DNA of 64,000 bases, taken from positions 1 to 64,000 of IMG/VR virus record IMGVR_UViG_3300013114_000583; one strand, given 5' to 3'. This stretch comes from a virus. The notes under the pieces were generated by a model, which did no database searches, was not told the origin of the DNA, and was given only the letters and a program-made list of their open reading frames with translations. This document shows, in pieces, positions 3,496 through 53,704 of this stretch (positions are counted from its first letter, which is position 1; the number at the start of each line of letters is the position of its first letter). The position numbers and the translations under genes were made by a program.

Positions 3496-3801
<306 letters not shown>

Positions 3802-7784: not shown

Positions 7785-8651
7785 TTATACTCCTGGTGGT
7801 AATTCTGGTAGTTTTGGTGGAGGGCCCTCTGCTGGTGGCTCTTCTTCCTCTTCTGGGGCAGCCCCGGGTTCAGCCTCTGGTGCGATTCCCGCTTCGGCTT
7901 CATCACCCGGGGGCTCTCCTGTTGGTGCCGCTTTTGTTTCATCGTATTCCGGGCTGCTGGGTTCTTTAAGAGTTGGATCTAATTCTTTTTCCCATTTATC
8001 AAAATAAAGTTTTAAATTTGCCATCATCCATCTCTTGAAGATTTCCTGGTCATCAAGATCATCAAGCCCAGAAAAGTGATCCACAATGGAGGTTTCAATT
8101 ACAGAATAAACTTGTTCAGCCTTATTCCTTCCAGTTGTGTCTTGGTCTTCTAATTCACGAAACCCCTCTTCTTCGTCTTCACCTTCAATTGGCCTTTCTG
8201 CTTTATCTATAAACTCAGCTTCTTCATCTGATCCGTCATCAGCATTAATAAACTTTTCCTTATCTTCATCTGAAACAACGTCTATGTCTACTACTTCTTC
8301 TTTTAAAGTAGCTTTGTCTGTAGCCTGGATCGGTTCAAGGGTGTCCATTACCCAATTTAAGATATGAGCTCTAAATGACTTTCTCTGTTCTGGGGTTGTT
8401 GTTAAAGTTTTGTAAGATTGTCGTAGCGTTTTTAACATATTGGTGTTTTTAAAGAGTTCTCGTAAAACGTTGATTCCAGTGTACTCGTGTGGATCTGTTT
8501 CTACTTTTTCAGCAGCGACTTCTAATATCAAGTGACGTATTAAGTTTCGAAATTTAATTTCTTCGTTTAACTCAGCATTTTTACGCTTTTTTGCCATCTT
8601 AATAGCAGTTCGTACATGAGCTCTTAGTAATCTCTCTTCAGTTTTGTTCAT
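7785..8651 (-). CDS. hypothetical acidic phage protein
   Basis: 288-aa ORF, Pro/Glu tail. Confidence 0.75.
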   Translation of the reverse strand: MNKTEERLLRAHVRTAIKMAKKRKNAELNEEIKFRNLIRHLILEVAAEKVETDPHEYTGINVLRELFKNTNMLKTLRQSYKTLTTTPEQRKSFRAHILNWVMDTLEPIQATDKATLKEEVVDIDVVSDEDKEKFINADDGSDEEAEFIDKAERPIEGEDEEEGFRELEDQDTTGRNKAEQVYSVIETSIVDHFSGLDDLDDQEIFKRWMMANLKLYFDKWEKELDPTLKEPSSPEYDETKAAPTGEPPGDEAEAGIAPEAEPGAAPEEEEEPPAEGPPPKLPELPPGV

Positions 8652-12845: not shown

Positions 12846-13451
12846 TTAAGTTAAAGTTATTTTATAAAACTGTTCAGCATCCTGGCCTCTTATATAAGGT
12901 GTTTGTCCTAGTATGACTCTTAAAGGGGGAGGTTTTATGGCTCCTGTGTTTGAGTCTGTCTCATAATTGTTTTCATACTGGGCGAGTTTATAATAATCAA
13001 AAATATAATTCTTGGCGATATCGCCCTTCGACTCTCTGGTGTGCTTCGGAGCCTCAGGAGGTACGGCTTGGTCTACTGGTGAATTGTATGAGCCTTTATA
13101 TGCAAGCCAAGTATTAGACCCGCCATTATGTGAAGTTCCATTACCAGTATCCCAAGTATAAATATTCGAATCATGAAACCCAGATTTCCAGATTGCGGTG
13201 TCTGCAACAAAAGCATCGCCTGCAGCCACGTTCGCGACGCTTATATCTTCAGTATGAAAAAGAATAGACTGCCTATCACCACTAAACCACTTCTGGGTAC
13301 CATTTGTTAAAGACTGAGCCTGCCAGGCAACCCAAGAATAGGTATTGGGATCATCAGAACCCCACTGATACACGTCCGGGCTCCAGCCTGTTTGTTTTCT
13401 TTCTAGATAGTATAAAGTACCACCAGAATTATTGGTAATAGCTGTGCTCAT
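12846..13451 (-). CDS. hypothetical probable virion protein
   Basis: 201-aa W/T/G/N-rich ORF. Confidence 0.65.
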   Translation of the reverse strand: MSTAITNNSGGTLYYLERKQTGWSPDVYQWGSDDPNTYSWVAWQAQSLTNGTQKWFSGDRQSILFHTEDISVANVAAGDAFVADTAIWKSGFHDSNIYTWDTGNGTSHNGGSNTWLAYKGSYNSPVDQAVPPEAPKHTRESKGDIAKNYIFDYYKLAQYENNYETDSNTGAIKPPPLRVILGQTPYIRGQDAEQFYKITLT

Positions 13452-13470: not shown

Positions 13471-14463
13471 TTAGATATATTCTGGAGATCTTGAGAAGAA
13501 AATCTCTTTAGTACATGTTTCTTTTAACGAGTCCTCTATCCAAAATTGAATATCTTCGAAAGCTTCAAACTCATATAGCTGAGGTCCGTCAAAAAGTCTC
13601 CAAACCCCGATTTCTTCTAAGACATCCACTTTATTAACCACAAGTTTATTAACTCCGTTAATTCTAATGGCCATTTCCAGTAGATTCATGTCTAGCCAGT
13701 TAATTTGTCTTGGTCTTCCAGTCGTAGATCCAAATTCGTTTCCAACTTGTCTTATTCTTTCAAAAACCGGGTCTGCACCTTCAAAATCTTTAGCACCAAC
13801 GTAGGTTTCATAAATTTTAGCAACACCCCAAACATCTCTAACTGCTTGAGGGGGCACCCCATTTAATAAAGCTGATCCGACAGTGCAGTGAGAAGAGGTG
13901 ATATATGGATAGTCGCCCCAATCAATGTCTAGGCCGAAGCCTTGGGCACCTTCGAAGAGAATAACTGGATTTTCAGTATCTACATGAAGTTCATCGTAAA
14001 TATCTATTAGAAATTCTTCTAATTCAGGCATTTCTAGGGCCCTAATGCCCTTCCTACCGTATTTATCACGGTATGCGGGCCCGTTACCCCTCTTGGTAGT
14101 CCCAATGGCCGTATCGGTTGAATCCTCGGCTCTATGGAAATCTGTTATAATATGCGCATTTGCGGATATCTTGATAAGAGAAGTATCCAAACCTTTCTCT
14201 GCAAGTTCTTTTACTTCTTTTAGAAATTTCGAGGGGTCGACCACACATCCTGGGCCGATTATAGACTTTATCCCAAAGAAGACACCACACGGTATGTGGT
14301 GAGTAATAAATTTAACACCTTCGTGCCAAATCGTGTGGCCGGCATTACATCCCCCATTATACCTGATCACATGAGTGTAATCATTTTCCTTACACAAATG
14401 ATGTGCCACTTTTCCTTTGCCGCAATCACCATATTGTAAATCAACGACTATATCAGCGATCAT
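13471..14463 (-). CDS. purA: adenylosuccinate synthetase (short form)
   Basis: QYGDCGKGK, GGCNAGHT, GTTKRGNGPAY, FEGAQG, YPYITSS, GSTTGRPR, NKVD. Confidence 0.95.
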   Translation of the reverse strand: MIADIVVDLQYGDCGKGKVAHHLCKENDYTHVIRYNGGCNAGHTIWHEGVKFITHHIPCGVFFGIKSIIGPGCVVDPSKFLKEVKELAEKGLDTSLIKISANAHIITDFHRAEDSTDTAIGTTKRGNGPAYRDKYGRKGIRALEMPELEEFLIDIYDELHVDTENPVILFEGAQGFGLDIDWGDYPYITSSHCTVGSALLNGVPPQAVRDVWGVAKIYETYVGAKDFEGADPVFERIRQVGNEFGSTTGRPRQINWLDMNLLEMAIRINGVNKLVVNKVDVLEEIGVWRLFDGPQLYEFEAFEDIQFWIEDSLKETCTKEIFFSRSPEYI

Positions 14464-37448: not shown

Positions 37449-37796
37449 TTATGCCAAACCGAACTTCTTGAGCATATCCTGAACATCGTCCATACTCAAG
37501 GGGACATCGTGCACCGATACATCAACCTTGCGCTTATCCGATGGCGCGGGTGCTAGTTTCGTTGTTTCGGCGCGGATTTCGTCCTCTGTCCACTCGCCGC
37601 TTTCGAGGTCATGGTCCGTCAAAACCAAGGTGCGGGCAGGGAGGCGTTTGACGCGCAAGGTCTTTGCAACTTCGGCGCGGGCTTCGGCCTTCGTGACCTT
37701 GCGCCATACGGTAACGCCGCCGGTCCACAAAGCGTGATCATTGTTAGCGTCATCGGCTAGCCGATAGTGAATTCGAGTAGGTTTGGGGGTCCTCAT
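37449..37796 (-). CDS. hypothetical early protein
   Basis: directly after promoter, GAAAGG SD. Confidence 0.7.
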   Translation of the reverse strand: MRTPKPTRIHYRLADDANNDHALWTGGVTVWRKVTKAEARAEVAKTLRVKRLPARTLVLTDHDLESGEWTEDEIRAETTKLAPAPSDKRKVDVSVHDVPLSMDDVQDMLKKFGLA

Positions 37797-38136: not shown

Positions 38137-38149
38137 AAAACTAAACTCT

Positions 38150-38834
38150 CGGTTTATGTTTGTGTTCCAAGTGAAGCGTTCGCTTCACACGAAAAATGCC
38201 AAGGGTTCCCAGCTTCCCTTGACTAGATGTGACCTAACGCTTACGCAACGATCCAACCGTTCTGCACTCTATAGAGCGGCTTACGATGCTCCGAAAAGCA
38301 GCTGGTCCCGTTCACATCCCCCACAATGGCATACAGCCTACTAGCTCGTCCCGCCTACTAGCTCGTCCCGCGCATATGCGCTCGGTGCAATTCGGCTCGG
38401 TGCAATTCGGCTGCATACCAAAATAAATCTAATGCCAAGCGTCGGAACACCCATGTCCGATCAAGGGCTTGTCTAGCCATGTTTTCCTTCACACTGGTAG
38501 CAACTCCAGTGTGACATTAAGCTCGAAGGTCTGCAATAAGATGCTGCGTTTAGTCACGCAATGCAGCCACTCGACATCAGAATCATTAAATCTAAACAGC
38601 ACTTGAGCTTGTGGAAGGTTTGCCGGCGTGCACAACGACTCACCTCGCAACCCAAGTCCAGACCCCATTGGCTTGTCGGCCTTCATGGCACCCCCTACGT
38701 TCTCGGGAGTGGGCACGATTCGAACATGCCTCTTGGTTTTACTGCTCTACACTGTTATCCATGACAAGTGATCAATCTTGCAGCACGGACAACACTCAAA
38801 TGCTGATTACGTTCAACGATCCTCAATTGTTTAT
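38150..38834 (-). ncRNA. candidate large structured ncRNA (~690 nt)
   Basis: perfect promoter upstream, no credible ORF, many hairpins including UUCG, GNRA and T-loop-like loops. Confidence 0.55.
38336..38412. repeat. two adjacent tandem duplications (17 bp x2; 15 bp x2)
   Basis: GCCTACTAGCTCGTCCC x2 (38336-38369); GCTCGGTGCAATTCG x2 (38380-38409). Confidence 0.9.
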
Positions 38835-38840
38835 GTGTAT

Positions 38841-38869
38841 ATTATACAGGAGCTTTCTGCTTTTGTCAA
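38841..38869 (-). promoter_or_regulatory. consensus sigma70 promoter
   Basis: TTGACA-17-TATAAT exact. Confidence 0.9.
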
Positions 38870-40530: not shown

Positions 40531-40728
40531 CTATTTATGCCTCGCAAGTATTTCTCCCTCCCAATCTTCGATGGCAGCTTGACGCAGCAGCTCCGTACTC
40601 TCATCATCATAGACCGCACAGCCCCGAGTTTCAAGGTGAAGCTGCAATTCCGCTCTGGACATCTGCTGTATCTCTATCAAACTTGTATTTGCAAACGTCC
40701 ATCCGACCCGTTCCATTCTAATCTTCAT
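40531..40728 (-). CDS. hypothetical protein
   Basis: 65-aa ORF. Confidence 0.55.
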   Translation of the reverse strand: MKIRMERVGWTFANTSLIEIQQMSRAELQLHLETRGCAVYDDESTELLRQAAIEDWEGEILARHK

Positions 40729-41878: not shown

Positions 41879-41965
41879 TGGTAGCTAGGGCGGGACTCGA
41901 ACCCGCAAAGTCAAATGACCGGCAGATTTTAAGTCTGCTGTGTATGCCAGTTCCACCACCTAGCC
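41879..41965 (-). tRNA. tRNA-Leu (UAA)
   Basis: GGCTAGG acceptor, anticodon loop CTTAAAA, long variable arm, encoded CCA. Confidence 0.95.
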
Positions 41966-41969
41966 TCAG

Positions 41970-42042
41970 TGGGGCATCCGAGGCTCGAACTCGGAACCAG
42001 CGGATTAAAAGTCCGATGCGCTACCAATTGCGCCAATGCCCC
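41970..42042 (-). tRNA. tRNA-Lys (UUU)
   Basis: GGGGCAT/ATGCCCC acceptor, loop CTTTTAA, TTCGAG. Confidence 0.95.
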
Positions 42043-52627: not shown

Positions 52628-53704
52628 TTATTCACCAGACTCCTGGTCACCGGCGAGAATTCGCACAAGATAATCAGAAACTGAGTTGCCATCAACTTCA
52701 GACTGGTGCAATTTAATAGTGTTATTGAGAGCACCATTTCCCAGCACAGACCACAACTTCATTGCAACCTCTGAAGGGAGCATTATAAAATAACGAGCAA
52801 GGTTGTCAACATTTGCTTGTTCCAGCTCTTCTTTAAAAGACTCAGCGGCTTCAAACTTTTCAATTAGAGCGGTGTGATCATTGATCCCAAAATCAGCAAC
52901 CTTATCAAACTTACCGTGAACAAGAATATCTTCAACAGTAACTTGACGATCATAGTTTCCGATAAAATCGTTAAAAGCAACAGCGGCTTCAAAACCAACA
53001 AATGAACCTGCCAAGTGATATAACGTCGGACTAGACTCTAAACTTTCACCCAGCAAACCAGCAGAAGCCAAACAAGAATCAAGACGCTCCCAAGAACGGC
53101 GTGATGGATAAACTTTATTTGGCTCAAAGTCATCAGAGTGCTCAAGGTGCGCACGGTTTTGATTGATAAAATCCCAAGTTACATCAGTGATCTGGTTATC
53201 TTTTGCCCAAGATAACCAGTCTTCAGTAGAAGGCTCAACATCAAATACCGTCCAGCGATCCAACTCGGCGGGATCCATTTCGCCAACCTGATATTGCGCA
53301 CCATGATCACCACCATTAACAGCAGCAAAAATAAGAGTACCGGCATGTAGGCTATGGCCGTTCAATTTACGAGAATCTGTCAACTCAAAAATTCCTTGAC
53401 GGACTTCGAGAGTAGCTCGATCAATCTCGTCGAGAAATAAGATAACAGGCTCGTCGCAAGCTCGTTTGTACCAGTCCGGTGGATTGAATGAAGTGCTGTT
53501 ACCTTTAATAACAGGCAGCCCAACCAAATCACCCTCAGTCATCTGAGAGGCGCGCCTCTCTACCACAGGTAAGTCAATCTTTTTAGCATATTGGTAAACC
53601 ACCGTAGACTTACCAATACCGTGACGACCACGAAGCAAAACAGGTTTACGAACATCAGTAACATGATGAACGATTGCGGAAAATGTCTTGAAATCAACTG
53701 CCAT
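52628..53704 (-). CDS. MoxR-like AAA+ ATPase
   Basis: Walker A GRHGIGKS, Walker B LFLDEIDR, DPAELDRW, PSRRSW. Confidence 0.9.
   Translation of the reverse strand: MAVDFKTFSAIVHHVTDVRKPVLLRGRHGIGKSTVVYQYAKKIDLPVVERRASQMTEGDLVGLPVIKGNSTSFNPPDWYKRACDEPVILFLDEIDRATLEVRQGIFELTDSRKLNGHSLHAGTLIFAAVNGGDHGAQYQVGEMDPAELDRWTVFDVEPSTEDWLSWAKDNQITDVTWDFINQNRAHLEHSDDFEPNKVYPSRRSWERLDSCLASAGLLGESLESSPTLYHLAGSFVGFEAAVAFNDFIGNYDRQVTVEDILVHGKFDKVADFGINDHTALIEKFEAAESFKEELEQANVDNLARYFIMLPSEVAMKLWSVLGNGALNNTIKLHQSEVDGNSVSDYLVRILAGDQESGE

Follow-up and report, generated by a model that had tools for sequence, protein, structure and literature searches.

The 64,000 nucleotides (nt) analysed here, called the window below, are the first 64 kb of the 139.8-kb virus record IMGVR_UViG_3300013114_000583 from IMG/VR, whose completeness is estimated at 77%. 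On the minus strand, which carries nearly all genes of the window, the interval between 38,150 and 38,869 contains a consensus promoter followed by four RNA domains: domain 1, module C, module D and a motif designated R1. The interval is probably a non-coding, early-expressed precursor of stable structured RNAs which would act in trans. That it is functional at the RNA level can be stated with high confidence, and it is very likely that its domains are modular, autonomous units. A first-pass annotation had proposed a single structured RNA of about 690 nt on this strand, behind a sigma70 promoter. A structured, non-coding minus-strand RNA was supported by the analysis, and covariation among homologues, the test named in that annotation, was detected in all four domains. 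The RNA is not monolithic, however: it is composed of four independently closed domains, which recur elsewhere in other orders and combinations (Table 1).

The promoter had been described as an exact TTGACA-17-TATAAT. This was borne out at 38869-38841 (minus strand), the top-scoring site between 34 and 44 kb. Two perfect sites were found in the window against 0.03 expected from shuffled sequences; the second, TTGACA-16-TATAAT at 52782-52809 (minus strand), lies within an AAA-ATPase open reading frame (ORF; 52628-53704). From the position of the promoter, transcription is predicted to start near 38834. The same perfect consensus stands ahead of homologous RNA cassettes in the related loci L048 and L054, and a leader of the same type (AACAATYGAG) was found in L011, L012, L045, L048, L049 and L054. 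Within the window the promoter-plus-leader pattern (38822-38869, minus strand) occurs once. Since the cassette-type leader is unique in the window, the RNA cassette as a whole may have been imported recently. At the 3' end of R1 there is a terminator-like site (38213-38198). Beyond it, the segment 38166-38152 resembles the leader region at 38843-38829 (repeat D3). L048 shares the 3' flank of the window without the gene that follows it there.

Relatives of the interval were collected by using an ORF frame purely as a search handle, which yielded two IMG/VR contigs and 12 metagenome loci; a third viral contig was reached via a neighbouring gene. A tblastn search with the neighbouring 455-amino acid (aa) protein against GenBank phage records gave no match, and the upstream 88-aa protein, tried as an anchor, led to no relatives. 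When the locus and two R1 copies were compared by blastn with 50,697 GenBank phage records, nothing beyond chance 19-24-mers was detected.

R1 was then traced separately. IMG/VR was scanned with a pattern consisting of the R1 GNRA hairpin and last loop only, and all 26 contigs found in the first scan were confirmed by the R1 model at an expectation value (E) of 6e-17 or lower. A looser pattern added six true copies, along with six chance matches, to give 32 IMG/VR contigs in total for which the model supports R1 at this threshold. R1 was also present in L056 and in two contigs of metagenome-assembled genomes (MAGs). Among 185,579 species genomes the exact pattern identified two true copies, both on MAG contigs, and three chance matches, and no copy in an isolate. 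As neither the 5' GUGGG nor the helices P1 and P2 formed part of the search pattern, which was limited to the GNRA hairpin and last loop, these features provide independent confirmation. The window copy, the sole one in its genome, shows the P1/P2 layout and all three sequence landmarks (GUGGG, GNRA hairpin, last loop); the optional P4 hairpin is missing from it.

In its general architecture R1 has a long-range helix P1 of 8 base pairs (bp) stacked on P2 (4 bp, ACCA/UGGU type) around a variable insert. In alignment A1, comprising 22 distinct sequences, 99.7% of the cells were paired, as compared with 24-47% in slid controls, and none of 500 shuffles matched the observed value. P1 was paired throughout (100%), with all eight of its pairs changed on both sides somewhere in the alignment; the GATGT/ACATC pairing of the first-pass annotation is this strongly covarying helix. 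In P2 a C-G pair is replaced by G-C in two sequences, and P5 also covaries. Little or no variation was seen in the 5' GUGGG, CCAGA(G), GUGGUUGCG-GNRA-AGCG, AGG and the 10-nt loop AAGNUGGGAA, in which N is C, U or A. The GC-GTAA-GC element noticed earlier proved to be the GNRA hairpin, whose stem does not vary; 26 of the 28 aligned R1 sequences have the loop GUAA and the other two GGAA. Pseudoknots between the R1 loop and the junction CCAG or the P4 sequence UUCCCA were dropped because P2 and P4 covary as ordinary helices and because the variable loop base can be C, U or A.

R1 lies on the same strand as the neighbouring tRNAs and often within tRNA arrays. In L023, L031 and L041 a tRNA-Arg(UCU) ends 0-1 nt upstream of R1, and inspection by eye indicated the same for L030. 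A tRNA begins directly 3' of R1 in L025, L026, L031 and L064, and tRNAs are located within about 100-450 nt of R1 in L018, L019-type loci, L020, L026 and L029. In L040, R1 stands alone, preceded by a short leader and its own promoter. Stretches of about 190-450 nt end with R1 in L018, L025, L026, L027, L029 and L034; apart from that of L026 (63 aa), they are poor in ORFs (longest ATG-started ORF 18-47 aa). These varied settings indicate a dual status: in some loci R1 is a small RNA gene standing by itself, while in others it forms the constant 3' domain of longer, variable RNAs.

Some R1 loci have further elements nearby. The R1-ended RNA of L018 has in its 5' part (about 8210-8400) two copies of a GUGACGAAAGC unit behind its own promoter; this part represents another variable 5' domain. 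A conserved, ORF-free module Y starting with GAGGCCTTGGATTTAGCGGTCCGAGGAGCC lies between tRNA and R1 in L025 (about 2040-2235), L026 and L029, viral contigs of 83-293 kb; in these three contigs it had no Rfam match at the gathering score. The R1 copy of L019 is flanked by group I introns (12982-13172 and 13592-13790). After the first intron a tRNA-like 3' end is found directly upstream of R1, for which ARAGORN gave no call.

Covariation was examined in domain 1 as well. Six homologues, diverged to about 63% identity, were aligned (A2). The structure contains 63 pairs, with 94.7% of the cells paired and 15 pairs changed on both sides; none of 500 shuffles reached the observed value, and slid controls were 31-41% paired. 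A caveat to these figures is that the same small alignment also served to derive the structure. The GGCATG-TTCGAAT-CGTGCC hairpin (38730-38712), described earlier as T-loop-like, is kept in the homologues with compensatory changes in the stem and a conserved T-loop: the loop remains UUCGAAU or UUCAAAU, while the stem varies from GGCAUG/CGUGCC to AGCG/CGCU in L054. The local CAGCAT/GTGTTG hairpin of the first-pass annotation is probably replaced by the 24-bp long-range helix which closes the domain.

The five available sequences of module C (alignment A3) are at least 89% identical and offer few changes. Compensatory changes among them are C-G to U-A and U-A to C-G in the closing helix, and UCGGA/UCCGA to UUGGA/UCCAA, with a U-G intermediate in L050. 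The 9-bp CACACTGG hairpin reported previously exists in the window, but it has an A-A or A-G mismatch in relatives. In L011 and L050-53 module C is found without domain 1.

Module D is a long arm. Its repeating unit pairs GCC-GAAUU-GC-A-CC with GG-GACGA-GC-UAGUA-GGC and contains an AGUA/GAA internal loop, recognised by eye, of the loop-E type, which is an established RNA motif. Two exact tandem duplications had been noticed here, and both were confirmed: 15 nt repeated twice on the 5' arm (38409-38380) and 17 nt repeated twice on the 3' arm (38369-38336). They had been described as tolerated, but they are more than that. Each of them repeats one arm of the loop-E-like unit, hence the helix holds two stacked copies; the duplications lie on opposite arms of one helix and jointly add the second copy. 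In L048 both duplications are kept, with GUU..GAC in place of GCC..GGC, and the apical stem is changed yet paired (GCGC/GCGC in the window, GCC/GGC in L048). G003 and L050 have a single-copy module D with another closing stem (CACACAG/UUGUGUG).

Folding energies agreed with the assignment of the strand. The whole minus-strand RNA had -251 kcal/mol, compared with -226 kcal/mol for shuffled sequences (z -4.1), whereas the plus strand of the same interval was ordinary (z -0.04). By piece, the minus-strand z values were -3.98 for domain 1, -3.58 for module C, -2.5 for module D (plus strand +1.0) and -0.6 for R1. The G-U pairs within the conserved helices are likewise consistent with a minus-strand RNA. 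In sliding 300-nt windows z was unremarkable except at 38550-38849, and such a scan would not alone have flagged the locus.

At least 11 related metagenomic loci combine these domains in differing ways and orders (Table 1). DNA comparison showed module blocks with sharp borders, shared at 87-95% identity, and every module is closed by its own terminal helix: 24 bp in domain 1, 13 bp in C, about 14 bp in I, 11 bp in D, and P1 plus P2 in R1. Modules X and I are absent from the window phage. In relatives module I is an insert that separates domain 1 from C or from R1.

Table 1. Features of the interval, modules of related loci and their arrangement
Feature	Position	Strand	Description
Sigma70-type promoter	38841-38869	-	-35 TTGACA 38869-38864, 17-nt spacer, -10 TATAAT 38846-38841; score 12/12
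Cassette leader	38820-38834	-	Short 5' leader AAACAATTGAGGA; heads most cassettes in related phages
Domain 1	38583-38819	-	About 237 nt; 24-bp long-range closing helix 38819-38794 with 38608-38583; alignment A2
T-loop hairpin	38712-38730	-	Inside domain 1; alignment A2
Second hairpin	38689-38711	-	Inside domain 1; alignment A2
Module C	38420-38582	-	About 163 nt; 13-bp closing helix CUGAUGUCGAGUG with CGCUUGGCAUUAG, four internal hairpins; alignment A3
Module D	38327-38419	-	Two stacked loop-E-like units, 11-bp closing helix; fold and relatives
R1	38192-38326	-	Full-length match to R1 model, 85.6 bits, E 2.6e-18
R1, 5' part and insert		-	5' GUGGGGG, P1 GAUGUGA/UCACAUC, P2 ACGG/UCGU, variable insert with UUCG hairpin
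R1, 3' part		-	UGC-GUAA-GCG hairpin, 3' hairpin with conserved loop AAGCUGGGAA, U-run
R1 GUGGG	38320-38324	-	Landmark
R1 GNRA hairpin	38238-38247	-	Landmark
R1 last loop	38207-38216	-	Landmark, AAGNUGGGAA
GTGAAGC-GAAC-GCTTCAC hairpin	38171-38188	-	Inside decayed promoter/leader remnant; precedes next gene (ATG 38136); from sequence
65-aa ORF	38489-38686	-	AGGGGG-N4-ATG; spans domain 1 and module C; judged not a gene
40-aa ORF	38358-38480	-	AAGGA-N5-ATG; rejected by comparison
Module X	L012 2728-2834; L045 688-802; L048 487-559; L049 525-637		About 110 nt, conserved, structured-looking; precedes domain 1
Module I	L048 812-905; L011 2905-3000; L050 55-146; L056 126-216		About 90 nt; helix GGACUAUCGAGAAA with UUUCUCGAUAGUCC
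Order, window			promoter, domain 1, C, D, R1
Order, L048			promoter, X, domain 1, I, C, D, different 3' end; closest full-length relative, 74-83% identical
Order, L012			promoter, X, domain 1, R1
Order, L045-47			gene, X, domain 1, C, gene
Order, L049			gene, X, domain 1, gene
Order, L054			promoter, domain 1, U-run, next promoter
Order, L050			D (single copy), I, C, gene
Order, L056			domain 1 (cut), I, R1, gene
Order, L011 and L051-53			gene, I, C
Order, G003 (seen as L005/L032)			D (single copy), R1

From these data the following mechanism is proposed. Host sigma70 RNA polymerase would start at the consensus early promoter and synthesize an RNA of about 650-690 nt, in which domain 1, C, D and R1 would follow each other in series, each folding independently. 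The transcript would be handled like the precursor of a tRNA array, and the domains would persist as stable RNAs, either whole or after cleavage by host ribonucleases. Processing into separate RNAs is a tentative part of the proposal. The domains would act in trans as binding surfaces, for which the conserved T-loop, GNRA loop and 10-nt loop of R1, together with the doubled loop-E modules, are candidates. Their targets might lie in tRNA metabolism, translation or host RNA-directed defence, a suggestion to be taken with more reserve still. The last hairpin of R1 with its U-run would also bring transcription to an end or attenuate it, and would shield the 3' end.

Several observations weigh against this proposal. 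The transcript, its ends and its processing are predicted from sequence. The R1 copy of the window is thermodynamically ordinary and does not lie beside tRNAs, the nearest being at 41879-42042. Since R1 is absent from two fairly complete relatives (G001 and G004), it is accessory. Covariation in modules C and I is thin because the sequences known are about 87-95% identical. Sites complementary to the R1 loop showed no excess in the phage genome. Finally, in L045, L049, L050 and L056 modules are located between protein genes without a terminator, an arrangement which would fit cis-acting roles as well.

The main rival is indeed a role in cis, in which the interval would be a leader or intergenic element controlling the genes from 38136 onward at the level of stability, processing, termination or read-through, or translation. 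Because the next gene has merely a decayed remnant of a promoter of its own, it probably relies on read-through from the promoter at 38869. Moreover, modules stand immediately before a ribosome-binding site and a gene in the four loci just mentioned, and R1 ends in a terminator-like hairpin with a U-run. However, R1 does not hold the constant position upstream of one kind of gene that would be expected of a riboswitch or cis-acting leader: the downstream genes vary by locus, and what comes after R1 may be a tRNA, the next promoter or an unrelated gene. Domain 1 of L054 stands alone and gene-less between its own promoter and a U-run. The terminator loop of R1 is conserved in sequence, unlike the loops of ordinary terminators, and no alternative pairing was found between the 3' strand of P1 and the terminator stem. 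Because the downstream partners vary and the L054 unit has no gene, a cis role is disfavoured as the general role, and we regard it as unlikely.

It could also be argued that the interval is non-functional mosaic debris left by recombination of promoter-bounded cassettes, or that it carries signals at the DNA level, and that it looks conserved through recent exchange. The sharp breakpoints between highly similar blocks would fit this explanation, and so would the single cassette-type leader of the window phage, which suggests recent import. However, compensatory changes maintain the helices of R1, domain 1 and module D among sequences as little as about 63% identical, both the G-U pairs and the folding energy depend on the strand, and the invariant loops of R1 are kept in loci that share no local protein genes with the window phage (L018, L026, L029 and L031). 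Debris of this kind is therefore very improbable.

The interval had been said to contain no credible ORF. This statement needs qualification, since two ORFs with a Shine-Dalgarno-like sequence and an ATG exist in the window; it is the comparative data that reject both. The view that the 65-aa ORF, the 40-aa ORF or both encode real products conserved at the protein level could draw on the C-terminal half of the 65-aa frame, which is open, with its stop codon kept, in all five sequences with module C, and on the 15-nt duplication, which is in frame. But the start region of the 65-aa ORF is replaced in L012, L049 and L054 by sequence carrying in-frame stops, and its counterpart in L048 has a 1-nt insertion and an early TGA. 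In L045, where they are enclosed by a 1-nt deletion and a 1-nt insertion, the nucleotides TTGTGCACG are kept but are read in a different frame, so that the peptide is changed. Substitutions in five homologues were spread evenly over the three codon positions (6/4/4, 5/4/6, 7/9/6, 15/13/16 and 8/9/12), without the excess at third positions typical of coding sequence. In the 65-aa ORF part, the comparison with L011 gave five non-synonymous changes and one synonymous change, and a PHROG search returned no match for the ORF. In relatives GCG or ACG stands in place of the ATG of the 40-aa ORF. Conservation continues at a similar level past the stop. A conserved start, frame and length are thus missing; as neither ORF survives comparison, the interval is treated as non-coding, and small protein genes are considered extremely unlikely.

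A hepatitis delta virus-like ribozyme, a type III antitoxin and a CsrA sponge were considered from anatomy only; topology, repeat structure and the GGA count did not fit.

The first-pass annotation had suggested a divergent GOLLD or ROOL RNA or, alternatively, a new class. GOLLD is a phage RNA of unknown function, hundreds of nt in length, which is often found near tRNA islands, has a conserved 3' region, its 5' region being conserved to a lesser degree, and forms a homo-oligomeric nanocage; ROOL, an RNA of phages and prophages often near tRNA islands as well, has a complex structure and no known protein partner (PMC12286853). The present RNA resembles them in size class and phage origin, the R1 family is tied to tRNA arrays, and RNAs ending in R1 combine a constant 3' domain with variable 5' domains, as GOLLD does (PMC12286853). 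No Rfam 15 model matched, however. At the gathering score the window and 14 related loci contained only tRNAs, transfer-messenger RNA (tmRNA) and group I introns outside the locus, which itself was unmatched; with permissive filters the segment 37800-39200 and a canonical R1 copy gave nothing at E ≤ 10, and six related metagenome loci gave nothing at E ≤ 1. Membership of GOLLD or ROOL thus failed on the locus, the window and 20 related loci. In addition, the conserved core here is only about 105-200 nt long, in contrast to GOLLD, and the 5' parts are discrete closed modules which are also found without R1; in contrast to ROOL, no multi-pseudoknot core was detected, and the organization is modular rather than a single fold. 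That the interval is a divergent member of either family is hardly tenable.

RNA C and RNA D of phage T4 (species 1 and 2; 119-139 nt) are stable RNAs encoded in a tRNA cluster directly 3' of tRNA-Arg, and their roles are still unknown (PMC3014915). The R1 copies of L023, L031 and L041 (112-141 nt) have the same position relative to tRNA-Arg(UCU), but the likeness is positional only. The window's own R1 does not lie in a tRNA array, and R1 lacks the tRNA-like T-arm and acceptor found at the end of T4 RNA C. Homology was rejected, as the R1 model gave no hit in T4 68000-76000; the T4 RNAs are not represented by a family in Rfam. With phage tRNA arrays the interval shares the arrangement of self-contained folded units head to tail in one transcription unit, exchanged between phages, and in domain 1 a covarying stem is capped by a canonical UUCGAAU T-loop. 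In contrast to such arrays, no unit in 38140-38869 is a tRNA or tmRNA according to ARAGORN and Rfam; only an isolated T-loop hairpin is present.

Of the alternatives offered in the first-pass annotation, a new class is the one that survives. With about even chances, R1 and its partner modules constitute an undescribed class of phage RNAs, in which closed domains are shuffled like protein domains, behind early promoters or within tRNA arrays. An invariant 12-mer of R1 occurred in no paper of the literature searched, and keyword searches likewise gave nothing on the R1 motif. According to its main text, a catalogue drawn from IMG/VR holds 8,495 candidate structured RNAs, with unnamed candidates of 29-151 nt (PMC10690425), and R1 fragments could be among these. 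That main text describes no tRNA-array motif of the R1 kind and no modular RNA (PMC10690425).

Other features of the window may be mentioned briefly. It encodes five tRNAs (Met, Leu, Lys, Thr and Arg, identified with ARAGORN and Rfam) and a phage tmRNA at 3496-3801 (minus strand; 127 bits) with the tag peptide ANDDVEIFEDFALAA. The locus is bracketed by genes for small proteins at 37449-37796 and 40552-40728 (both minus strand) whose L012 counterparts flank RNA arrays. These proteins of L012 (118 and 70 aa) are 46% and 44% identical to those of the window, indicating loose synteny.

It has long been known that the tRNA islands of phages carry extra structured RNAs. T4 RNA C and RNA D have lacked an explanation for decades; for GOLLD and ROOL the structures are known and the function is not. 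With R1 (about 105-200 nt), the locus described here contributes a compact core with strong covariation, which is found in dozens of uncultivated phage contigs and occupies the same tRNA-island niche. It also adds discrete closed RNA domains recombining in many orders, which have not been described for T4 RNA C and RNA D, GOLLD or ROOL. The doubled loop-E module is a clear natural case of an RNA helix growing by modules, with matched duplications on both arms, and the doubled form of module D is retained with compensatory change in a relative of about 75% identity. Because R1 is small, it is suited to probing, structure determination and pull-downs. If the interpretation is true, the new RNA class would be a tractable relative of the tRNA-island RNAs, T4 RNA C and RNA D, GOLLD and ROOL, and could reveal the role of the whole group, for example as RNAs acting on tRNAs or translation factors, or as decoys for RNA-targeting host defence.

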